From the NCBI GenBank assembly GCA_049296775.1, contig JBAQTB010000003.1, positions 12,766 through 76,765 on the forward strand: a stretch of DNA of 64,000 nt. The letters run 5' to 3'. A program made the position numbers and the translations under genes. This document shows, piece by piece, positions 49-61,291 of this stretch. Source of the stretch: Patescibacteria group bacterium (GTDB lineage: Bacteria; Patescibacteriota; Patescibacteriia; UBA9934). The notes beneath the pieces are model-generated. The model worked only from the letters and a program-made list of their open reading frames with translations. It did no database searches and was not told the DNA's origin. Numbering within the stretch: the stretch's first letter is position 1; the number at the start of each line of letters is the position of its first letter.

Positions 49-1560
49 CTACCCTGTCGCTGGTCGGGGTTGGAAACCTTTGGGCGGCATACCTGGAGGT
101 AGGCCGATGTTGTTGGGGTTGGGTCCAGTTGAGCCTGGTGCTGGCAGGCTGCCGGACATAGCTGGAGCAGCGTGACTTGGAGTCGAGCTAGGTGGTTGAT
201 AGCGCGTATCCATGTTTTTGAAGGAGGCTCTAGCCGCATCCCAGTATAGCTTGACCATGCCGGTTGGGCCATTTCTATGTTTGGCAATATGGACTTCCGC
301 GCTATTTTTCTCTTCCGGAGTCAGTTCTTCTGCTTGGTAGTTACGGTCTGAAGCTTTGCGGTACAAGAACATGACTACGTCAGCGTCTTGCTCAATGGAT
401 CCAGAGTCACGCAGGTGGGCCAGGCGGGGAATAGCTGGTTTGGTGAGTTCTACGGCACGTGAAAGCTGAGCGAGGGCCAGGACAGGCACATGGAGCTCAC
501 GCGCAATTTGCTTTAAGCCACGACTGATTTCTGCCACTTCTTGAACGCGGTTGTCTGACTGGTTTTTAGCTTCCATGAGCTGCAAGTAGTCGATAACAAT
601 CATGGACAGGCCGTGTTCGCTCTGCAGACGCCGGGCTTTGGTACGGATACTCATGATGGTGGCGGCGGGGGAGTCGTCAATGAAGATTGGGGCTTCTGAG
701 AGCCGGCCGAGGGCGTCACCAATTCTTGGAAAATCGTCATCTTGTTCAGATAGTCGGCCGGTACGGAGCTTCCAGAGATCCACATTAGCTTCTGCACAGA
801 TCATGCGGTCGACTAGCTGCTCCTTGGACATTTCCAAGCTAAAGAAACCGACAGGCTTTTTAGTTTTCAGCGCGACGCTACGGATAATATCTAGCGCGAA
901 GGAAGTTTTACCCACAGACGGACGGGCGGCGAGAATCACTAGGTCAGAAGGCTGGAGGCCAGCGAGGAGGTTATCGACACCAGTAAAGCCGGTTGGAACG
1001 CCGCGTAACTTGCCCTTGTCTTTGTGGAGCTCATCAATTCTGTCAAAGGCGTCGGTCAGAATGGTGCTAAGTGGCACGAAACTTTGTTTGATGAAGTTGG
1101 TGGAAACGTTGAAGAGTTTTTGTTCAGCGGTATCGATGACAACGTCAACGTCTTGTGATTCATCAAAGCCGAGTTCAGTAATTTCTCCTGCAGCTCTAAG
1201 TAGGCGTCTGAGGGCGGCTTTTTTGGAGATGATTTCTGCGTAGTGAGAAACATGGGCGGAAGTGGTCACGGCGTTGGTCAACTCCACAAGCGCAGTGCGG
1301 CCACCAATCTGTTTCAAAACCCCTCGTTCTTCCAGCCGGTTGCCTAGGGTTAGAATATCGATAGGTTGATGACGTCCGAAAATCTCCACCATGGTCTCAA
1401 AGACAATGCGGTAAGAGTCGCGGTAGAAATCTTCCCCACGCACCGCATCACCAACTTTGAGCATGGCTTCCTGGTCAATCAAAAGCGCCCCAAGCAGGGA
1501 TTGCTCGGCTTCAAGATTATGCGGAGGAATGCGGGCACCAAGCGACATAGCTGCAGGCAT
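49..1560 (-). CDS. dnaB: Replicative DNA helicase DnaB with a roughly 55-aa Pro/Ser/Gly-rich C-terminal tail
   Basis: 503-aa ORF. N-terminal DnaB motif HNLEAEQSLLGALL, Walker A ARPSVGKTSFAL, RecA-like C-domain motifs IVIDYLQLM and HVPVLALAQLSR. The C-terminus QPPSSTPSHAAPAMSGSLPAPGSTGPNP... is low complexity. Confidence 0.93.
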   Translation of the reverse strand: MPAAMSLGARIPPHNLEAEQSLLGALLIDQEAMLKVGDAVRGEDFYRDSYRIVFETMVEIFGRHQPIDILTLGNRLEERGVLKQIGGRTALVELTNAVTTSAHVSHYAEIISKKAALRRLLRAAGEITELGFDESQDVDVVIDTAEQKLFNVSTNFIKQSFVPLSTILTDAFDRIDELHKDKGKLRGVPTGFTGVDNLLAGLQPSDLVILAARPSVGKTSFALDIIRSVALKTKKPVGFFSLEMSKEQLVDRMICAEANVDLWKLRTGRLSEQDDDFPRIGDALGRLSEAPIFIDDSPAATIMSIRTKARRLQSEHGLSMIVIDYLQLMEAKNQSDNRVQEVAEISRGLKQIARELHVPVLALAQLSRAVELTKPAIPRLAHLRDSGSIEQDADVVMFLYRKASDRNYQAEELTPEEKNSAEVHIAKHRNGPTGMVKLYWDAARASFKNMDTRYQPPSSTPSHAAPAMSGSLPAPGSTGPNPNNIGLPPGMPPKGFQPRPATG

Positions 1561-5261: not shown

Positions 5262-5516
5262 ATGTTAACTAAAATAGACCTGACCCTTTTGAAGGGCATG
5301 TTCAAGACTTACACGGAAGACGTTGTCTCGATGGTTCGTGATGAAACTCGATCGTTAATTGCCGCTTCGGAACAACGTATAACTGCTAAATTAGAAAACA
5401 AAATCGACCAACTCCGTTCTGATGTTATTGACCTGACGAATAACTCAATTCTGCCTCAGATTCACGAACTTCAGGAGGACAACTTACGTATCAAAAAATT
5501 CGTGCGGATGGTTTAG
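5262..5516 (+). CDS. Small coiled-coil protein, copy 3 of the tandem paralogous family
   Basis: 84 aa; MLTKIDLTLLKGMFKT..., SILPQIHELQEDNLRIKKFVRMV. Confidence 0.7.
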   Translation: MLTKIDLTLLKGMFKTYTEDVVSMVRDETRSLIAASEQRITAKLENKIDQLRSDVIDLTNNSILPQIHELQEDNLRIKKFVRMV

Positions 5517-5574
5517 TTGACCTTGTCGAGTATCGGCTCGGGATCATGCTATCCAACATACGTTAAAGCTTGAT

Positions 5575-16319: not shown

Positions 16320-16342
16320 GGTCGCGCCTGATCGAGAATCTT

Positions 16343-16378
16343 GCCCGATAGACCACTGGTCTGTCGGGCATTTGTTTT
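16343..16378 (+). terminator. Intrinsic terminator
   Basis: gcccgatag / ctgtcgggc stem with 9-nt loop, followed by ATTTGTTTT. Confidence 0.65.
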
Positions 16379-16487
16379 ACGAGCCCTCAGGTTTGCGCCG
16401 CCGGTGATTTTGTTTTGTCCGAATGAATGTCTGATTCAACTCGACAGAATCAGGAGGGGGTGATCCTAAAGAAAGTAATAGAGATCG

Positions 16488-16521
16488 ATAAGTCCTTCGG
16501 CATCCGCCTCAGGATGGTGAT
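16488..16521. repeat. 34-nt motif taagtccttcggcatccgcctcaggatggtgatg, shared with 46069..46126
   Basis: The same ggcatccgcctcaggatggt(g/a)atg core and taagtcctt prefix occur at 46069..46126; the second copy carries a 25-nt insertion. Confidence 0.5.
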
Positions 16522-16602
16522 GTGCGGTACAGACTGGTCGGCGACCCGTCTGTACGCCAAATGTGAGTGTGATGAGATGAAGTAAGAAAGATTAAAGTCG
16601 TG

Positions 16603-17661: not shown

Positions 17662-17784
17662 TGAATAATGACCACCCTGATTCTTAGCCTACGCTCAGGA
17701 TCGGATTGGAAAGGGTTGGGTTGGTCCACAGGATTGGGAGGTGTTACTAATTCTTTAGAACGCGCCTCAGGGTAATTTAGTTCT

Positions 17785-19076: not shown

Positions 19077-19111
19077 AAGTGACAACTGGGGGCTATACCC
19101 AGTTGTCACTT
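19077..19111. promoter_or_regulatory. Perfect 14-bp inverted repeat, candidate operator upstream of secD
   Basis: aagtgacaactggg-ggctata-cccagttgtcactt. No U-tract follows, so it is probably not a terminator. Confidence 0.35.
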
Positions 19112-19148
19112 GCGTAAATGGCGGCATTTTCTTAGAATGCTCCCGACT

Positions 19149-21188
19149 ATGAACAAATACGCCGCTCGAGAAGGTTTTTCTTATAAGCAGGCTAGATTGG
19201 TAGCTCTGGGGCTGTTATTGGCCTTAGCGATAGGCGTGGGCATCGCTTATCCCAAACCTTGGAATCAGGCCATGGGTGCCATGGAAGATAAGTTAGGCTT
19301 CCATTTGCCGTATTTGCCGGAATCAGAGTTTAGATTGGGTCTCGACCTACGGGGCGGGGCGCATTTGGTATATGAGGCTGACATGTCGGCCATTCCAGAC
19401 GTAGATAAGACTGAGGCCTTGTCTGGTGTGCGTGACGTGGTGGAGCGCCGGGTGAATGCGTTTGGTGTGTCTGAGCCGGTGGTGCAGACCACGGTGAGCG
19501 GTGGAAGCTATCGCGTGATCGTGGATTTGCCAGGCGTGACTGACGTTGCTGACGCTGTGCGTGAGATTGGCGAGACGCCAGTTTTGACTTTCCGTTTACC
19601 GGACGAAGAGATTGAAGTTGAACCGACTGCTGAACAGGAGCAGCAGATCGTGGAGGCACAGGTCATTGAGCGTGAGGCGGCCGTAGCGGTGTTAGACCGC
19701 GCTTTGGACGGTGAGGATTTTGGTGCCTTGGCAGCGGAGCTATCTATTGACGCAAGTACTAGAGACGCTGAGGGTTATGTGGGTTTCATTAGTTCTGAGG
19801 ATGAAGAGTACGGTGGTTTGGCTGAGCAGATTGCGGATGACCGCTTGCGCGTGGGCGTGATTAACGGCTTGTATGAAGGCACGTCACGTATTCACATTGT
19901 TAAGTACTTATCTAGAAAGGTAGAAACTGAGCCGAGAATTTCACATATTTTGGTGTGTTATGACGGCGCTTTGAGCTGTACGCAATCACGCACTAAGGAA
20001 GAAGCCTTGACGATGATTGAGGGACTTAAGGATCAGGCCACACGCTCCAACTTTGCTGAGTTAGCTACAGAATCTTCAGATGACACAGGGAGCGGTCAGG
20101 CTGGTGGAGATTTGGGCTTCTTGAAGCCAGGTGACACCGTAGCTCCTTTTGATGAAGCCGCTTTTGCTTTATCGAATAACCGAATCTCTGAGGTGATCGA
20201 AACAGATTTTGGTTACCATATCCTATTCCGCCCAGAGTCACGGTCTGTGACTTATTACGAAATTGCCCAGGTAGAAATGCCATGGACAACCTTGTCTGAT
20301 ATTTTCGTGATTGATCCTTGGATTAACACTGAACTGTCAGGTAAGCATGTACAGCACGCGAGTGTCGGTTTTGATCAGAACAGTGGTGCGCCGTACGTGA
20401 TTTTGGACTTCAACACTGAGGGTGCTGATTTATTTACCAAAATGACGGAAGAAAACGTGGGTAAAGTGATCGGGATTTTCTTGGATGGTGAAGCCATTAC
20501 TACGCCAGTCGTGCAGCAGGTCATTTACGGCGGGCAAGCGACGATTACCGGAAACTTCTCTCTGACTGAGGCTAAGCTCTTGGCGCAGCGTTTGAATGCT
20601 GGCGCCTTGCCAGTGCCAATTGAAGTTGTTAGCCAACAGACGATCGGTCCAGCTTTAGGTAAAGTGTCACTAGATAAGAGTATTCAGGCTGGTTTGGTAG
20701 GTTTTGCTCTGATCGCGTTGTACATTTTAGTGTATTACCGCTTGGCAGGAGCTTTGGCAGTGGTGGCGTTAGCTTTTTACGCCGTGACTAACCTGGCTTT
20801 ATACAAGTTGCTGGGTGTGACGATTACATTATCCGGAATTGCCGGTTTTGTGTTGTCGCTCGGTATTGCGGTTGATGCCAACGTGCTGATTTTCGAGCGC
20901 TTAAAAGAAGAATTGAGAAGTGGCAGGGATTTGCCAACAGCGTGTGACGAAGCCTTCAGACGCGCTTGGCCATCTATTCGTGACGGTAACTTGACGACCT
21001 TGATTGCGACCATGGTGTTGTACTGGATCGGTGAAGGTTTTATTCGTGGATTTGCTTTGACCTTGACGATCGGTGTGTTGATGTCGATGGTGAGCGCAAT
21101 GGTGGTCACTAAGGTGCTCTTGAAATTGGTCGTACGTTATAAGGCGGTACGCAAACCGGCATTTTTCTTAGGTCTTGAACGTAAGTAG
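19149..21188 (+). CDS. secD: SecD with two parvulin-type (PpiC) PPIase modules inserted in the periplasmic domain
   Basis: TM1 then SecD base LGLDLRGGAHLVYEA. Insert module 1 GEDFGALAAELSIDASTRDAEGYVGFI...TSRIHIVK (degenerate parvulin). Module 2 ISHILVCYDG...GGDLGFLKPGDTVAPFDEAAFAL...DFGYHILF (canonical PpiC). Then SecD P1/C-terminal TMs VVALAFYAVTN..., GIAVDANVLIFER. Confidence 0.8.
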   Translation: MNKYAAREGFSYKQARLVALGLLLALAIGVGIAYPKPWNQAMGAMEDKLGFHLPYLPESEFRLGLDLRGGAHLVYEADMSAIPDVDKTEALSGVRDVVERRVNAFGVSEPVVQTTVSGGSYRVIVDLPGVTDVADAVREIGETPVLTFRLPDEEIEVEPTAEQEQQIVEAQVIEREAAVAVLDRALDGEDFGALAAELSIDASTRDAEGYVGFISSEDEEYGGLAEQIADDRLRVGVINGLYEGTSRIHIVKYLSRKVETEPRISHILVCYDGALSCTQSRTKEEALTMIEGLKDQATRSNFAELATESSDDTGSGQAGGDLGFLKPGDTVAPFDEAAFALSNNRISEVIETDFGYHILFRPESRSVTYYEIAQVEMPWTTLSDIFVIDPWINTELSGKHVQHASVGFDQNSGAPYVILDFNTEGADLFTKMTEENVGKVIGIFLDGEAITTPVVQQVIYGGQATITGNFSLTEAKLLAQRLNAGALPVPIEVVSQQTIGPALGKVSLDKSIQAGLVGFALIALYILVYYRLAGALAVVALAFYAVTNLALYKLLGVTITLSGIAGFVLSLGIAVDANVLIFERLKEELRSGRDLPTACDEAFRRAWPSIRDGNLTTLIATMVLYWIGEGFIRGFALTLTIGVLMSMVSAMVVTKVLLKLVVRYKAVRKPAFFLGLERK

Positions 21189-23687: not shown

Positions 23688-23708
23688 CGTTGTTTGCACT
23701 CTGCTTGT

Positions 23709-25724
23709 ATGGCGAACCGTTATCCTCACGATCACGAGCAAGATGTTGTCTATTTTGCTAAGACTAACTTCCGCAATCAATTGCGCAAGTTTGGCATTAA
23801 GACAGATGACCGACGCCGTCATGTGTACGTGGTGGGTAAGACCGGTATGGGTAAGACCACTTTGCTTGAGAACATGATCTTGTCAGATATTTACGCCGGG
23901 CACGGTTGTTGCTATGTAGATCCGCACGGGGATACGGTACAGAAAATTATCGATTACATTCCGTCATGGCGCATTAATGACGTGGTGTATTTCGATCCTG
24001 CTGACGTGGCGCATCCAATCGGATTTAACATTTTGGAGTCTGTGGATCCGACCATGAAACACTTGGTGGCGTCGGCTCTCATGTCCGTGTTTAAGAAGAT
24101 TTGGGAGAATGTATGGTCAGCGCGCATGGAGTACATTCTCAACAACACGATTTTGGCGCTTCTGGATACCCCGGGCACCACGCTCTTGGGTGTGAATCGC
24201 ATGTTGTCAGATAAGGAATATCGTTTAGAGATCGTCAAGAATATTCAAGATCCGATTGTTAAGCAGTTTTGGGTGACAGAGTTTGCGGCGTATGACGCTA
24301 AGTTTGCCTCTGAAGCCGTGGCTCCGATCCAGAACAAGATCGGTCAGTTTTTGTCTTCCTCGATTATTCGCAATATTGTGGCTCAGGCTAAGTCGTCCAT
24401 CAATATTCGTGAGATGATGGATGATCAGAAGATTTTTATCATCAACTTATCTAAAGGTAAGATTGGGGAAGATGCCATGCGCTTGCTCGGCGGCATGTTG
24501 ATCACCAAGATGCAGGTAGCTGCCATGGAGCGCGTGAATGTTCCGGAAGAGACTCGTGAAGATTTTTATTTGTACGTTGATGAATTCCAGAACTTTGCGG
24601 TGGAATCATTCGCTGGCATTTTGTCTGAGGCGCGTAAGTACCGGCTGAATTTGATCATGGCGCACCAGTACATTACTCAATTATCTGAAGAGGTGAGAGA
24701 CGCGGTGTTTGGTAACGTGGGTACCATGATTACGTTTAGAGTTGGCTCGCCGGATGCGGTTTTCATGGAGAATGAGTTCATGCCCAGGTTTACGCCAGAG
24801 GATATTATCAATTTGCCTAAGGCGGGTATTTATTTGAAGTTGATGATTGATGGCGTAGCGAGTCAGCCGTTTTCTGCGGTGACTTTGCCGCCAATTGCGC
24901 AACGCACTGAGAGTATGACGCGCGTAGTTGAGCAGTCGCGTGAACGTTACGGTGGTAACCGCAGCATCATTGAAGAACGTGTGGCAGTTTGGAGCGGTTT
25001 TGGCGCTGATGCCGATGTCGAGAAGATGATTGCGGGTGTAACTCAGGCTAAGAAAGATGCCAAGAAGGCTAGATTTAGTCACGATTATACGTGTACGCGT
25101 TGCGGCAAGGTTTTCTCATTGCCAGTTGAATTAGACCGGAGCCGGCCGATTTATTGTGAAGATTGTAAGCCGATTATTGACGCTGAACGACAAAAGTCCA
25201 AAGACAAAGCTGGTCAACGGACTAAAATCTCAGATGGGCAAGTGATCACTAAACCGATCATTGGATCAGTGTCGCTCGATACTTTAGTGCCGCCTAAGCG
25301 TCTGGAGCCAGCGGTGGTTGCGCCAGAGAAGCACGAGCATATCTTAACGCCGACGGTGCCTGTGCCGCCAGCTGTTGCGGTTAAACCAGTCGCGGTTGCG
25401 GCGGTCGCAGAAACGCCTCGAGCCGCTCCGGCTCCCGTGACGCCTTCGGTAAGTAGCCGACCGTCCATGCCAGCACCACGTGCGGTAACAGTCGCGCCAG
25501 CTCGGCCTGTGAGCACGCAGACAGGAACAGCTGACCCGGATAAGAAGCGCAAGCGGAATCGCAAACGCAAGCCTAGAGTTATAGCAGATGTAGCTGTCAC
25601 GCCACCATTAGCGCCGTTGTCTGTGCCTAGGCTAGTGCCACCAACGGCGATTAAAACCACGGCGGCCATTGAGCCAGCGCTGAAGCCTGTCATGCCCGGC
25701 GAAAGAATTAGCTTTGATGATTAG
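23709..25724 (+). CDS. TraD/TraG/VirD4-family (type IV coupling protein-like) P-loop ATPase, soluble, with C-terminal zinc ribbon and Pro/Ala-rich basic tail
   Basis: Walker A VVGKTGMGKTTL, Walker B YLYVDEFQNFA, T4CP-like core (LIMAHQYITQL). CTRCGKVF-x16-YCEDCKP zinc ribbon. A 190-aa P/A/V-rich tail carries KKRKRNRKRKPR. No N-terminal TM helices. The ORF-track start 23694 is TTG; the ATG is at 23709. Confidence 0.7.
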   Translation: MANRYPHDHEQDVVYFAKTNFRNQLRKFGIKTDDRRRHVYVVGKTGMGKTTLLENMILSDIYAGHGCCYVDPHGDTVQKIIDYIPSWRINDVVYFDPADVAHPIGFNILESVDPTMKHLVASALMSVFKKIWENVWSARMEYILNNTILALLDTPGTTLLGVNRMLSDKEYRLEIVKNIQDPIVKQFWVTEFAAYDAKFASEAVAPIQNKIGQFLSSSIIRNIVAQAKSSINIREMMDDQKIFIINLSKGKIGEDAMRLLGGMLITKMQVAAMERVNVPEETREDFYLYVDEFQNFAVESFAGILSEARKYRLNLIMAHQYITQLSEEVRDAVFGNVGTMITFRVGSPDAVFMENEFMPRFTPEDIINLPKAGIYLKLMIDGVASQPFSAVTLPPIAQRTESMTRVVEQSRERYGGNRSIIEERVAVWSGFGADADVEKMIAGVTQAKKDAKKARFSHDYTCTRCGKVFSLPVELDRSRPIYCEDCKPIIDAERQKSKDKAGQRTKISDGQVITKPIIGSVSLDTLVPPKRLEPAVVAPEKHEHILTPTVPVPPAVAVKPVAVAAVAETPRAAPAPVTPSVSSRPSMPAPRAVTVAPARPVSTQTGTADPDKKRKRNRKRKPRVIADVAVTPPLAPLSVPRLVPPTAIKTTAAIEPALKPVMPGERISFDD

Positions 25725-29690: not shown

Positions 29691-29744
29691 GTCAGGAGCC
29701 GTATTTTCTAGATTTATCTTATCTAGCGTTTAACCCTTCGGGAA

Positions 29745-29990
29745 GATACTTTCTTTACCAGAAAAGAAAGTATCCAAAGAAACTGCCCCGTCTTTAAGTC
29801 TGTCGAGGTTGAAGTTCGTCGTCGCTTCGGGCAAACCCGGCGCTAGTCGATTCCATATTTCTAAGAAAATATCTTATTCGTTGGTATCGGCTAGCACGGG
29901 CTTTGCTATTCCTCAGCTCCCGCCGAACTTCCTAACGTAGCGCTCCTCGACAGACTCCGACGGGGATAGGCGACCCGCCGCTTACCGCCG
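29745..29990 (+). ncRNA. Candidate structured RNA element, copy A, upstream of lepA
   Basis: Perfect 12-bp 5' hairpin gatactttcttt/aaagaaagtatc, then four nested long-range helices P1-P4. About 85% identical to 37782..38024 with compensatory changes in the helices. Confidence 0.6.
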
Positions 29991-30052
29991 TTCCGATGAG
30001 TATTTCACTCGGTGGACACATGTTGGGTTTTCCGCTAAGCTAGGTCCGATTT

Positions 30053-31858
30053 ATGGTCCCACAGTCCCGCATCCGTAACTTTTGTATTATTGCCCACATC
30101 GATCATGGAAAGTCGACACTTTCTGATCGGTTGCTTGAGGTTACTGGCACCGTGCAGAGCAGACAGATGAAGGAACAGTTGTTGGATTCCATGGATATTG
30201 AACGTGAGCGTGGCATTACGATTAAGTTGGCGCCGGCCAGGATGCAATGGAAAAAGGCCGATACAGAATTTACCCTGAACTTAATTGATACACCTGGACA
30301 CATTGATTTTAACTACGAAGTATCGCGATCACTTGCCGCTGTTGATGGCGCCGTCTTGCTTGTCGATGCCACGCAAGGGGTGCAGGCTCAAACCATTGCT
30401 AACTTGTATCTCGCACTTGAGGAAGAGCTGGAGATTATTCCGGTCCTGAATAAAATCGACCTTCCAGCTGCTGACGTTCCACGTCGTAAGGCTGAGCTTG
30501 TTAAGTTACTTGGTTGTTCCGAGGACGAGATTTTAGCTGTTTCGGGCAAGACCGGCGAGGGCGTTAGGGAATTGCTTGATAAGATTGTAGACAAGATTCC
30601 GGCACCCAATGGTCGACCAGACGCGCCGGCTAGAGCAGTCATTTTCGATTCTGCCTATGACGACTACAAGGGCGTCGTGGCGTATATTCGAGTTGTTGAT
30701 GGTAGTTTCAAGAAGCGAGACAAGCTTAAATTAATCGCCACGCAAGCTGATGGCGAAATTCTTGAGATTGGTGCTTTGAAGCCCAAGTTTTTTCCGTTAG
30801 ATGAACTTGAGACCGGACAGATCGGTTACGTAGTGACGGGGCTTAAAGATATTCGGGCGTGTCGCGTGGGTGATACGTTCACGGTAGGTAATAGTTCAGC
30901 GGGAGTAGAGCCATTGCCGGGCTACAGAGAGGTCAAGCCGATGGTTTTTGCGGGAGTGTTCCCGGCACAAGGTGATGAGTACGGTGCCTTGCGTGATGCC
31001 ATGGACAGATTGAAATTAAATGACGCCGCGCTCGTTTACGATCCGGAGCATTCACCGGCGCTGGGGTACGGTTTCCGCTGTGGTTTTTTGGGCATGCTGC
31101 ATCTTGAGATTCTGAAAGAGCGACTGTCGCGCGAATACAATTTGGATTTGGTGGTGACTTTGCCGTCCGTAGCTTATCGAGTTTACGAGCAGGGTAAGCC
31201 GGAGTATCGAGTTATCAAAGGCGCCTTGGATTTGCCGGATCCAGCGCATATGGACAAGATTGAAGAGCCTTGGGCTAGGGTCGACGTGATTGTGCCAACA
31301 GACTTTATTGGTAACGTCATGACGTTAGCGCAGGACCGGCACGGTATTTACTTAACGACTGAGTATTTGTCTGAAGGCCGGGCTTTGATTAAATACGAGT
31401 TACCACTGGCGGCGATTATTGTTGACTTTAACGATAAGCTGAAGAGCGTCACGAGCGGATATGCTTCCATGAGTTACGAGATTTTTGATTACAGAGAGGC
31501 AGATATTGTGAAGCTGGATATCATGGTAGCAGAGGATACGGTGGATGCGTTTTCAACCTTGGTTTACAGGAGTGAAGCAGAAAGTTCTGGCCGGAGATTG
31601 CTTGAGATTTTGAAGGACTCAATTCCGCGCGCGCAATTTGTGATCAAATTACAAGCCGCCATTAGCGGTAAGATTGTAGCCGCAGAAAGAATTTCCGCCG
31701 TGAGCAAAGATGTCACGAGCGGTTTATACGGCGGTGACTATACGCGTAAATTAAAGTTGTTACAGAAACAGAAGAAGGGCAAGAAGAAGATGATGGCCAT
31801 GGGTGTGGGCAGTGTTGAGATTCCGGGTGAGGCGTATTTGAAAGTTTTGAAGCGCTAA
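30053..31858 (+). CDS. lepA: Elongation factor 4 (LepA)
   Basis: IIAHIDHGKST, DTPGH, NKID GTPase motifs and LepA C-terminal domain; 601 aa. Confidence 0.95.
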   Translation: MVPQSRIRNFCIIAHIDHGKSTLSDRLLEVTGTVQSRQMKEQLLDSMDIERERGITIKLAPARMQWKKADTEFTLNLIDTPGHIDFNYEVSRSLAAVDGAVLLVDATQGVQAQTIANLYLALEEELEIIPVLNKIDLPAADVPRRKAELVKLLGCSEDEILAVSGKTGEGVRELLDKIVDKIPAPNGRPDAPARAVIFDSAYDDYKGVVAYIRVVDGSFKKRDKLKLIATQADGEILEIGALKPKFFPLDELETGQIGYVVTGLKDIRACRVGDTFTVGNSSAGVEPLPGYREVKPMVFAGVFPAQGDEYGALRDAMDRLKLNDAALVYDPEHSPALGYGFRCGFLGMLHLEILKERLSREYNLDLVVTLPSVAYRVYEQGKPEYRVIKGALDLPDPAHMDKIEEPWARVDVIVPTDFIGNVMTLAQDRHGIYLTTEYLSEGRALIKYELPLAAIIVDFNDKLKSVTSGYASMSYEIFDYREADIVKLDIMVAEDTVDAFSTLVYRSEAESSGRRLLEILKDSIPRAQFVIKLQAAISGKIVAAERISAVSKDVTSGLYGGDYTRKLKLLQKQKKGKKKMMAMGVGSVEIPGEAYLKVLKR

Positions 31859-37781: not shown

Positions 37782-38024
37782 GATACTTTCTTTACCAGAA
37801 AAGAAAGTATCCAAAGAAACTGCCCCGGCTTTAAGTCTGTCAGGGTTGAAGTTCGGCGTCACTCCGGGCAAACCTGAATTCGACTGATTGATATTCCTGA
37901 GCATCATCACTTGTCTATTTGAATCAGTCGACCAGGTTTGCTATTCCTGCGTTTCCGCCGAACTTCCAAATACGTCACCCCTGACAGACTCCGCCGGGGA
38001 TCTGCGAACCACCGCTTACCGCCG
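37782..38024 (+). ncRNA. Candidate structured RNA element, copy B, upstream of ligA
   Basis: Same 5' hairpin and nested helices P1-P4 as 29745..29990, with compensatory differences. Confidence 0.6.
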
Positions 38025-38075
38025 TGAAAAGTGGCTCGAGGGACGTGATTTTGAGTTGTCGTTTGGCCAGTTTAC

Positions 38076-40148
38076 ATGGTAATATTGGCCGGTATGGCTA
38101 GGTCTAAATCAGAGGCGGCGGAGAGGATTTTGAAGCTTAGGCAGCTGATTGATAAATACCGTTACGAGTACCATGTTTTGGATACTCAAGAGGTGTCTGA
38201 TGCGGTGAATGACTCATTGAAGCATGAGTTGTATCAGCTGGAGCAGGCCTATCCTGATTTGATTGTGGCCGATTCACCCACGCAAAGAATTGGCGGCAAG
38301 CCGCTGGATAAATTTAACAAGATTGAACATGTTTACCCCATGTTGTCCATGGAAGACGTGTTTAGTTTTGCGGAATTGGGTGATTGGGAGGCGCGGTTGT
38401 TGAAAATTCGTGAAGGTCAGTCAACTGATTATTACGCCATGTTGAAGATTGATGGTTTGGCGGTGTCGATTGTTTATCAGGATGGCTTGTTGGTTACAGC
38501 TGCGACCAGGGGTGACGGCAAGATAGGTGAAGAAGTGACTAACAATATTAAGACTATCGAGGCGGTGCCGCTGGCGTTGCGTGCACCTGATGAGGCTGAA
38601 TTGCAGTCATTGCAAGCGACTTTTGGTGTGTCGGCTGAAATGATTGAAAAAATCAGGTCACGTGTGGGGCGAATTGAGATTCGTGGCGAGGTGTATATGC
38701 CTAAGGCTGCCTTTGAGGCCATGAACCAGGAACGGGCCAAAAAGGGTGAAGAAACTTTTGCTAATCCGCGTAATGTGTCCGCCGGGAGTATCCGTCAGCT
38801 TGATCCGGCGATTGCGGCGAGTAGACCGCTTGATTACATGGCTTGGCGTTTAGAAACTGAGCTGGGTGAGATGACGCAAACTCTGGGGGTCGAGATTCTT
38901 AAATTGTTTGGTTTCAAGACTAGCATCGGCCAACAGTGTGAGAATTTAAAGGCGGTGAAAGCTTTTTTTGAGGCAATGGGGAAGAAACGTGACAAGTTGG
39001 ATTTTTGGATTGATGGCGTGGTCGTCAGGGTGAATGATAACGTGGCGTATAAACAATTGGGCGTAGTCGGTAAGACGCCGCGCGGTTTGGTGGCTTGGAA
39101 GTTTCCGGCTGAAGAAGCGACAACGGTGGTAGAGTCTGTGGATTGGTTTGTGGGTCGGACGGGTGCTTTGACGCCAGTAGCGACAGTTGCACCGACCTTT
39201 GTAGCGGGCACGACCGTGACACACGCCTCTCTGCATAATGCAGATGAGATTGAACGTTTAGGTTTACGTGTTGGCGATACCGTGATTTTGACAAAGGCGG
39301 GGGACATTATTCCCAAGATCATGAAGGTGTTAACGGAACTTAGAACCGGTCATGAGCAGCCGGTGATGATTCCGGAGCAGTGTCCGGTGTGTGATGCACC
39401 AACCAAACGAGTTGAAGGGGAAGTGGCGCTCATGTGTTCAAACACATCTTGTTACGCTAAAGAGCGCGAGAAAGTGCTTTACGCCGCTAGAGCTTTTGGG
39501 ATTGATGGCCTGGGCGACAGAATTGTAGAAAAATTACTGGATGCCGGGTTAGTAAAAACTCCGCCAGATATTTTCCGCCTGCAAGCTGCAGATTTTTTGG
39601 GCATTGAAGGTTTTGCTGAGCTGTCAGCTAAGAAACTTTATGATCAAATTCAGACTCGTAAAGACATCGAACTGGCGCCATTCATAGTGTCTCTGGGTGT
39701 GCGGCACGTGGGCGCAGAAACGGCGTTTGCTCTTAGCTTGGCGTTTGGCACCATCGATAATATTGCGTCAGCTAGTTTGGATGAGCTTGAACGCGTACCG
39801 GATGTGGGAGTAACTGTCGCGCAGTCTATTCACGAGTTTTTTCAGAGTGAACATGGCAAGCATATGATCAAGGATTTCGCCGAAGTCGGGGTTATGATTA
39901 AGCAGGCTAAGGCCATCAAACGGGTGCTGGATGGTCAGCGTTTTGTGGTGACTGGGACTTTAGAGTCGATTGGTCGGGAGGAGGCTAAAGACAAGATCCG
40001 CCTTTTGGGCGGCAATGTCTCGGAATCCGTCAGTAAAAAGACTGATTTTGTGGTGGTTGGTGAGAATCCGGGCTCAAAAGCTGACAAAGCGCAGGAATTA
40101 GGGGTCAAGATCTTGTCGGAAGCAGAATTTTTGCGTATGCTCGCTTGA
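38076..40148 (+). CDS. ligA: NAD-dependent DNA ligase
   Basis: Adenylation domain KxDG (MLKIDGLAV), OB, Zn finger (CPVCDAPTKRVEGEVALMCSN), HhH, BRCT. Alternative start at 38094. Confidence 0.95.
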   Translation: MVILAGMARSKSEAAERILKLRQLIDKYRYEYHVLDTQEVSDAVNDSLKHELYQLEQAYPDLIVADSPTQRIGGKPLDKFNKIEHVYPMLSMEDVFSFAELGDWEARLLKIREGQSTDYYAMLKIDGLAVSIVYQDGLLVTAATRGDGKIGEEVTNNIKTIEAVPLALRAPDEAELQSLQATFGVSAEMIEKIRSRVGRIEIRGEVYMPKAAFEAMNQERAKKGEETFANPRNVSAGSIRQLDPAIAASRPLDYMAWRLETELGEMTQTLGVEILKLFGFKTSIGQQCENLKAVKAFFEAMGKKRDKLDFWIDGVVVRVNDNVAYKQLGVVGKTPRGLVAWKFPAEEATTVVESVDWFVGRTGALTPVATVAPTFVAGTTVTHASLHNADEIERLGLRVGDTVILTKAGDIIPKIMKVLTELRTGHEQPVMIPEQCPVCDAPTKRVEGEVALMCSNTSCYAKEREKVLYAARAFGIDGLGDRIVEKLLDAGLVKTPPDIFRLQAADFLGIEGFAELSAKKLYDQIQTRKDIELAPFIVSLGVRHVGAETAFALSLAFGTIDNIASASLDELERVPDVGVTVAQSIHEFFQSEHGKHMIKDFAEVGVMIKQAKAIKRVLDGQRFVVTGTLESIGREEAKDKIRLLGGNVSESVSKKTDFVVVGENPGSKADKAQELGVKILSEAEFLRMLA

Positions 40149-60951: not shown

Positions 60952-61108
60952 CAAGCAGCCATCGTGGCCCTTGTCTTACGCCGGTTTCTGAAGATGAAAC
61001 CGGCGTTGTTATTTGGGCCAAAATGTCAGGATGATTCTTTACAGAGGGGCTATTGTCTTGTTTCTTATCTTTTGCTAAGCTACTGTCGTTCCTAATAGCC
61101 GAATAGAA

Positions 61109-61123
61109 TATTCCGGGGTAGCT
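61109..61123 (+). repeat. 15-nt duplicate of the tRNA-Asn 5' end (tattccggggtagct)
   Basis: Identical to 61214..61228, which includes the first 12 nt of the tRNA. Confidence 0.5.
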
Positions 61124-61216
61124 TCCCGCATCAGACGTCGGTAATCATTACCTCCGTCGACGCGGGACAGGCAGTGGCCGTGAGCCACTTCGCCACCCGG
61201 ACAGAGACACAATTAT

Positions 61217-61291
61217 TCCGGGGTAGCTCAGTGGCAGAGCGCGGGACTGTTAATCCCTAGGTCGTGGGTTCGAGCCCCACCCCCGGAGCCA
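61217..61291 (+). tRNA. tRNA-Asn (anticodon GTT), CCA encoded
   Basis: Acceptor UCCGGGG/CCCCGGA, D arm GCUC-AGUGGCA-GAGC, anticodon loop CUGUUAA (U33, GUU, A37), T arm GUGGG-UUCGAGC-CCCAC, discriminator G, CCA. Confidence 0.85.

Follow-up and report, generated by a model that had tools for sequence, protein, structure and literature searches.

An undescribed family of long-hairpin elements dispersed between genes in some Patescibacteria

Two homologous copies of a non-coding element lie on the forward strand of the window (the whole 64-kb stretch of DNA that was analysed), copy A at 29745-29991 between mnmA and lepA, and copy B at 37782-38025 between pilD and ligA. As the preliminary description had it, both occupy long same-strand gaps; they end 61-70 nt before the lepA and ligA start codons. 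These gaps, of 362 and 326 nt, exceed all others in an otherwise very compact window, in which nearly every intergenic gap is shorter than 130 nt; the only others above 280 nt are 16320-16602 and 60952-61263, the latter of which holds a tRNA (61217-61288). The 58 ORFs of the window encode housekeeping proteins (DnaB, SecA, SecDF, Mur ligases, DnaG, RpoD and others), and a search among them for transposases, integrases, reverse transcriptases and RNA-guided nucleases found none. A 676-aa protein with TrwB_AAD_bind, T4SS-DNA_transf and TraG-D_C domains, similar to type IV secretion coupling proteins, is encoded among these housekeeping genes at 23694-25724 (+), about 4 kb upstream of A, with no other conjugation genes seen nearby. 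The gene at 19110-21188 (+) encodes a SecD-like protein into which a PPIC-type peptidyl-prolyl isomerase domain is fused (the Rotamase domain covers residues 262-372, between the SecD P1 subdomains), and a separate SecF follows.

The two copies were first reported to be about 85% identical; we measured about 80% (78.9% over 251 nt by blastn, E = 9e-49, and 81% in a MAFFT alignment, flanks included), and 68% in the rod alone. The leading 46 nt do not differ at all. The similarity begins precisely at the clamp hairpin (29745 in A, 37782 in B) and stops after ...CTTACCGCCGT (29991 and 38025, respectively). No third copy was found in the 64-kb window by blastn, nhmmer or the covariance model.

Each copy opens with a clamp hairpin, H5 (GATACTTTCTTT-ACCAGA-AAAGAAAGTATC), the 12-bp stem of which is indeed perfect (29745-29774 in A and, with the same sequence, 37782-37811 in B), followed by the linker CAAAGAAACTG, single-stranded in A (29775-29785 and 37812-37822). 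The rod measures 180 nt in A (29786-29965; 175.6 bits with the covariance model R1) and 177 nt in B (37823-37999; 160.6 bits), and the unit is closed by a 3' tail (ATAGGCGACCCGCCGCTTACCGCCGT at 29966-29991 in A; ATCTGCGAACCACCGCTTACCGCCGT at 38000-38025 in B). The rod of A consists of helices P1a (29786-92/29959-65), P1b (29797-808/29945-56), P2 (29811-21/29921-31), P3 (29831-39/29897-906) and P4 (29842-51/29886-95), with short 2-bp helices between P2 and P3 and a 34-nt tip loop beyond P4; the nested helices had been proposed by eye, RNAfold recovers all of them unaided, and fold and pair table give the same helices in B. The rods of the two copies differ by paired substitutions in P1a, P1b, P3 and P4. 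For P4 the initial account needs correction: in A this helix includes one T.G wobble and is not perfectly complementary, and in B, where it had been taken for a completely different sequence, it lies in register with that of A in the model-based alignment, the lower pairs differing by paired substitutions and the top three (G-C, A-U, U-A) being invariant family-wide. The folding energies predicted by RNAfold are -103.4 kcal/mol for A and -103.1 kcal/mol for B (z-scores of -7.5 and -9.7 against dinucleotide shuffles), and the opposite strand folds at least equally well (-113 and -111 kcal/mol). Just 5' of A, on the same strand, the sequence contains an accessory mini-hairpin, cccUUCGggg (29734-29742), which is the counterpart of optional hairpins (H1/H2) upstream of other members. 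Two further pairings were considered by inspection: one between the tail and the P1a 3' strand, 7 bp long in subtype I, was rejected, since P1a is changed between A and B and the tail is constant, and a linker-to-tip-loop pseudoknot is not claimed, the pairing being A/U-rich and of low information.

A and B genuinely belong to an undescribed family of long-hairpin elements, dispersed between genes in some Patescibacteria. Ten members, in which the P1-P4 pairings are preserved, were found outside the window by a genome scan, a metagenome scan and look-ups of syntenic regions, which gives 12 in total; the outside members come from a Patescibacteria MAG and from metagenome contigs. A pattern built on P1b-P2 matched one genome among 185,579 species representatives, a 'Candidatus Uhrbacteria' MAG (L002). 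The first pattern used on metagenomes (the P2-P3 segment) gave no match; a looser two-anchor pattern found eight true contigs, from Hainich groundwater 0.2-um filtrates and JGI Ga01631xx samples, as well as one contig that was dropped as a chance match at 70% GC (L009). The divergent members L014 and L021 were added by synteny look-ups with PilD and ydjM-like homologues. No member was found in plasmid and phage collections (blastn 'distant' mode), and pattern scans of viral contigs gave chance matches only, none of which was upheld by the covariance model. The copy number seen is two in the 64 kb of the window, and at least four contigs carry a copy in metagenome Ga0163151.

The family is new to Rfam: with Rfam 15 the whole window gave only three tRNAs at gathering thresholds, and at E <= 10 four members (A, B, L014, L005) gave only sub-threshold snoRNA, miRNA and lncRNA noise, so that the initial view that no characterised RNA class is involved holds, riboswitches, ribozymes, 6S, HEARO, OLE, ROOL and GOLLD included. 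No description of the element family was found in the literature searched. Six-frame scans of ten members revealed no conserved ORF, in keeping with the earlier reading of A and B, and a type I toxin-antitoxin mRNA was rejected because no ORF is common to the ten.

The constant parts of every member are a clamp hairpin of 12-15 bp, the purine-rich CCAAAGAAAC linker and an interrupted rod of about 180 nt (163-181 nt across members), and most members carry a 3' CCGCUUACCGCCG tail. The clamp hairpin has the form …TACTTTCTTT…AAAGAAAGTA… in all members, and its second pair covaries (A-T / G-C / T-A). The first C of the linker consensus is the last base of H5, and the linker is conserved in all members but the truncated L010. 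The tail, …CCACCGCTTACCGCCG(T/C), ends ten of the 12 members and differs in L002 and L014. In the 310 kb examined, the clamp hairpin and the tail motif CCGCTTACCGCCG always accompany the rod and never occur alone. The motif just 5' of the unit varies (TTTAC, TTTAAC, TTTTCA, TATTC, CCTAC).

In other genomes, optional small hairpins are added upstream (H0, H1, H2) or downstream (M3) of the unit. H0 (CCATCCTGA…GAAGGATTAGG) also stands alone (L007 2888-2965, L010 43-66), and these optional flanks, one of them also solitary, mean that the units sit in mosaics of small palindromic modules. In its full form H0 is a 5-6 bp hairpin, CACCATCCTGA-N-GAAGGATTAGG, found both directly 5' of the element and in isolation, in one case as two convergent copies (L002 3341-3364(-); L003 606-629(-); L005 3111-3136; L007 2888-2911(+) and 2940-2965(-); L010 43-66(-) and 1119-1144(-); L014 10822-10849), and it looks like an independent REP-like module; the window holds no H0 but one weak look-alike at 17677-17702(-). 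M3 (CCCTCGTCCACGTAGTGGAGAGGG then TGGGTGAGGA) lies just 3' of some elements, adjoining convergent genes (L003 269-283(-); L008 378-392; L014 11156-11171; L021 about 1205-1245(-)), and may be a bidirectional terminator-like hairpin.

One contig of 1367 bp (L008) requires separate mention. Its bases 1-139 correspond, in reverse complement, to the 5' half of the L021 element, its rod equals that of L003, its 3' flank equals that of L021, and these parts are joined within the palindromic clamp hairpin and within the shared tail. A head-to-head dimer sharing the clamp hairpin was rejected in favour of a probable chimeric assembly, and so was a 100% identical copy at two loci (suggested by the rod of L003), for which a chimeric 1.4-kb assembly is the simplest account; the contig is most simply explained as a pilD-site and a ydjM-site element that were probably fused by assembly. 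The palindromic repeats of this family can thus mislead assemblers.

The covariance model R1 describes the rod with 179 positions and 52 pairs, and scores the members at 107-204 bits on one strand versus 37-52 bits on the other. Among 12 distinct rods, 97.9% of the pair cells are standard pairs, and double (compensatory) changes occur in 25 of the 52 pairs, distributed over all of P1a, P1b, P2, P3 and P4 and one 2-bp helix; the observed pairing and covariation values were matched by none of 500 shuffles, and pairing drops to 31-49% when the 3' partners are slid. In subtype V (L021), P2 has been rewritten (GAAAUCCGG/CCGGAUUUC), and P1b too, and the central …CGGGCAAA / UUUGCUGUUCC… segment is retained. 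The covariation, the shuffle and slide tests and the rewriting of helices in L021 put the secondary structure, or equally an inverted-repeat symmetry, beyond doubt, and the compensatory changes first seen between A and B are borne out across the family. The hairpin itself is the selected feature.

The strand and the level at which this selection acts are a different matter. The pair cells number 571, of which 553 are Watson-Crick, 7 G.U and 4 A.C; what is A.C on one strand is G.U on the other, and at one pair both intermediates were met (U.G once, C.A twice). G.U counts are similar between strands (36 vs 33 in free folds, 7 vs 4 in the fixed structure). Because G.U is about as rare as A.C, the covariation fixes neither the strand nor the RNA level, and the near-pure Watson-Crick pairing is as expected for DNA or duplex-level complementarity. 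Compensatory changes are common also in REPINs, which are mobile DNA hairpins (PMC3116915). Selection on RNA secondary structure, and not just DNA repetition, had been read from A and B; the conserved structure stands, and the RNA level was overstated, with 97% of the pairs Watson-Crick, G.U no more frequent than A.C, and REPINs behaving alike. The case is a caution that compensatory changes by themselves are no proof of function at the RNA level.

A chromosomal DNA site, i.e., a binding or cruciform site at which a nucleoid, segregation or replication protein would act on the element as double-stranded or extruded DNA, would agree with the strand-symmetric, nearly all Watson-Crick complementarity, with a clamp that is a perfect palindrome and changes symmetrically, and with the strong sequence conservation. 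We nevertheless regard it as unlikely, since close relatives dispense with the element, which is far longer than known protein sites and has asymmetric conserved loops (a 13-nt bulge opposite 2 nt), and no candidate protein is known.

The genes next to the element vary. The upstream gene is mnmA for A, pilD for B, L003, L006 and L014, tmk for L002 and glmS for L007 and L010; L004 and L021 lie at a convergent junction of a small Sm_multidrug_ex membrane-protein gene and a ydjM-like gene, and L011 lies beside a divergent rluA. The next gene is convergent at five loci, and a neighbour is divergent at one. The element is co-directional with its neighbours in all three informative tandem contexts (mnmA-lepA, pilD-ligA, tmk-glycosyltransferase), and the accessory hairpins with cUUCGg-type loops are on the plus strand at five loci (29734-29742 in the window, L002, L003, L004 and L014); together, these observations weakly favour the plus strand and co-transcription.

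The window copies lie 61-70 nt before lepA and ligA and share their strand, which had suggested a shared cis-acting 5' leader (riboswitch- or attenuator-like) controlling both genes. The wider family makes this highly improbable: elsewhere the downstream gene encodes a glycosyltransferase, or a convergent ABC-2 permease or ydjM-like hydrolase follows and the element's own strand has no downstream gene, there is no constant 5' UTR position by which the element could be classed as a riboswitch or cis-regulatory leader, and lepA and ligA of relatives do without it. Moreover, lepA is preceded across relatives by a -10-like box, TAAnCT (TAAGCT at 30036-30041 in the window, the ATG at 30053), and ligA by a -10-like box TGGTAATAT (38077-38085 in the window), both conserved 10-15 nt before the ATG whether or not the relative has the element, which leaves almost no leader between box and start codon. 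The ATG of the longest ligA ORF (38076) overlaps the TGGTAATAT box, and relatives align on the ATG at 38094 (ATGGCT…), which on this alignment is the likely true start; the promoter would then lie only about 8 nt before the start and the mRNA would be nearly leaderless, and the layout at lepA is the same. With these conserved boxes next to both start codons, the element is placed 3' of the upstream gene's stop codon and 5' of the downstream promoter. Around both copies, scans for sigma-70 promoters and intrinsic terminators gave nothing above shuffles.

Conservation ends sharply after ...CTTACCGCCGT, with unrelated sequence beyond in every copy, and this 3' boundary would mark the start of the guide if the element were an orphan guide-RNA scaffold (TnpB/IscB omega-RNA or reRNA) or consisted of IS200/IS605-derived PATE ends. 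Like PATEs and omega-RNAs (HEARO), it is non-coding and structured, has a subterminal hairpin, and lacks terminal inverted repeats and target-site duplications. A T-rich (TTTAC-like) motif is often present 5' of the unit. It differs from them in that no nuclease or transposase gene belongs to it (no Y1_Tnp/RAYT, TnpB, IscB or tnpA gene was found in the 64-kb window or beside any other member) and in the lack of a HEARO or any other Rfam match even at E <= 10; furthermore, the tail is optional (L002 and L014 are without it) and the upstream T-rich motif is not constant. We therefore consider this origin very unlikely. No target-site duplication was found flanking the copies, as already noted for A and B; the accompanying statement that terminal inverted repeats are missing is misleading, since the 180-nt rod is one long imperfect inverted repeat.

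The distribution of the element among relatives is patchy. The pilD-ligA site is without it in L012, L013 and L017-L020, the PilD of which is 63-78% identical to that of the window, and these six relatives lack it across 20-kb syntenic regions spanning both window sites. In L024, the convergent ydjM-like and Sm_multidrug_ex genes share a 4-nt overlap, with nothing inserted between them. The same junction contains different members, of subtype I in L004 and of subtype V in L021, which differ in their accessory modules and left boundaries, and the sequences indicate that it was filled independently in the two. In L021 (1518-1535 (-), compared with L004 6800-6821 and L024 4898-4915), Sm_multidrug_ex has lost its native stop codon and is extended by six codons (…LQAFTA*) that lie in the H1 module of the inserted element, so that the insert remodelled the C-terminus of the protein. 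The pilD site contains three subtypes across different genomes. In L012, a different near-perfect palindrome of about 130 nt (5436-5570, GATATTACAAAATTAGATATTAGCAG…CTGCTAATATCTAATTTTGTAATATC) occupies the pilD-ligA site in place of the element, and hairpin inserts seem to have a hot spot at this junction. Copies from different loci in one metagenome population are 89-94% identical, and copies from the same locus in different genomes are as low as 60-70% alike. Empty sites, an independently filled junction and likeness across loci within a population require copying or exchange at the DNA level: the unit is copied or exchanged as DNA among a few permissive sites, mostly just 3' of a stop codon, and travels with a mosaic of optional small modules (H0, H1, H2, the 3' tail and M3).

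The rods of L007 and L010 are 91% identical, with all of 104 paired bases unchanged, and the four-fold sites of the adjoining glmS and ABC-2 genes are only 36-44% identical. This comparison argues for purifying selection or recent homogenisation of the rod; the differing 5' modules at the L007/L010 site make strict orthology doubtful, and both options remain. The most conserved part of the family is the mid-rod internal loop (…CGGGCAAA / UUUGCUNUUCC…), and the rod ends covary; conservation of the middle rather than the ends appears to fit a protein-binding nucleic acid better than transposon termini, and the invariance of the loop suggests a specific protein partner.

These features could also be those of a multi-copy, trans-acting, protein-binding small RNA of about 250 nt, rod-shaped like 6S RNA or Y RNA, with the central internal loop and clamp hairpin binding a protein and the sibling gene copies homogenised by gene conversion. 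An independently transcribed or processed sRNA had been the other option raised from A and B. We regard such an RNA as possible, and as the main rival of the reading that we prefer, though less likely than that reading: covariation is strong in every helix, the mid-rod loop is invariant while P1b, P2, P3 and P4 compensate even in divergent subtype V, conservation far exceeds that of four-fold sites, the rod length is constant (163-181 nt), the unit is oriented (155-204 bits versus 37-52 bits by strand), cUUCGg loops occur on the same strand, and the RNA, without an Rfam match, would be new. On the other hand, the copies have no promoter-like or terminator-like flanking sites, the element is missing from the 20-kb syntenic regions of the six close relatives and, at two sites, from 34 kb of one organism, the same gene junction holds different members with different boundaries, G.U pairs hardly occur and are as rare as A.C, an unusual feature in an RNA family, and the mosaic flanks are typical of repeat elements. 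That the element constitutes a new class of rod-shaped protein-binding ncRNA confined to one Patescibacteria lineage, with a 6S/Y-like shape and unrelated sequence, is rather doubtful. Like 6S RNA, which sometimes occurs in two copies, it has a rod of about 180 nt formed by pairing halves, with internal loops and a conserved centre, and is intergenic on the same strand as its neighbours; it differs in that its centre is not an open bubble but contains 2-bp helices, one of them covarying (pairs 40/136 and 41/135), in having no Rfam 6S match at E <= 10, and in occupying several changing loci and being absent from close relatives.

The reading that we prefer, with confidence about evenly divided for and against, is a dispersed non-coding hairpin repeat of the REPIN/ERIC/BOX kind that is probably co-transcribed with the upstream gene. 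The family is intergenic and lineage-restricted (Patescibacteria, CPR, Uhrbacteria-like). Like REPINs, the element is a non-coding, extragenic long hairpin made from inverted repeat arms, with compensatory changes in both arms (25 of 52 pairs here; for REPINs see PMC3116915), copies more alike within than between genomes, a lineage-specific distribution and no terminal-inverted-repeat or target-site-duplication signature of classical transposition. Unlike them, it has a hairpin two to three times longer (a 180-nt rod with a separate clamp hairpin) and is conserved in mid-rod, whereas REPINs are conserved in two terminal 16-25-mers; few copies per genome were seen in what are genome fragments only, compared with tens to hundreds of REPINs, and no RAYT gene was seen in these fragments (the 64-kb window and the members' neighbourhoods).

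With ERIC/IRU, BOX/RUP and Correia elements it shares a length of 100-300 bp, an imperfect palindrome, the intergenic location and tight folding, and, with ERIC, BOX and Correia elements, a frequent position at gene 3' ends and between convergent genes; with BOX it also shares modularity. BOX/RUP elements are modular and co-transcribed, with a proposed role in 3'-end stabilisation (PMC3049150), Correia elements bind RNase III (PMC2649163), and for the ERIC/BOX/Correia families action on mRNA, by 3' protection or RNase III / RNase E cleavage, has been proposed or shown (PMC3049150, PMC2649163, PMC2229807). There is, however, no sequence relationship to any of these, no TA or other target duplication, and much better conservation across genomes with saturated synonymous sites. 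MITEs are similarly small, non-coding and multi-copy, with filled and empty sites among relatives, but here the inverted repeat is internal, with clamp and tail outside it, and no flanking direct repeat was found.

For the preferred dispersed repeat, the proposed course of events would be as follows. A trans-acting enzyme, not encoded nearby, or gene conversion would copy the unit, and in tandem contexts read-through from the upstream gene would transcribe it. On the read-through RNA, it would form a very stable 3' structure (about -100 kcal/mol) that would shield the upstream transcript or set its end, or present RNase III with a long duplex, and the downstream lepA and ligA would start from their own promoters. 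The many unrelated contexts, the empty sites in relatives, and the modular flanks with solitary H0 count for a dispersed repeat. Against mobility count the absence of transposase, integrase, reverse transcriptase, TnpB and IscB genes nearby, the lack of target-site duplications and clean terminal inverted repeats, the low copy number seen, and rod conservation far above four-fold sites, which suggests purifying selection on each copy; the conserved central loop with covarying ends is the pattern of protein-binding RNAs and counts against transposon ends. Nor was a promoter or terminator consensus found around the copies.

Patescibacteria (CPR) have genomes of about 1 Mb with hardly any spare DNA, which makes a recurring, covarying non-coding element of 250 nt conspicuous, the more so as its conservation far exceeds that of synonymous sites in the genes around it. 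We know of no such hairpin repeat in this phylum, and a mobile repeat family would, to our knowledge, be the first described there; it would imply a mobilising enzyme, with sites at gene 3' ends as the only tolerated landing places. If the element acts as an RNA, it would add a new large structured RNA, probably with a protein partner, and, as a new ncRNA class, its central loop and clamp hairpin would recruit that partner in organisms with minimal regulatory repertoires. Under either reading, the 52-pair covariance model is ready for annotating Patescibacteria genomes.
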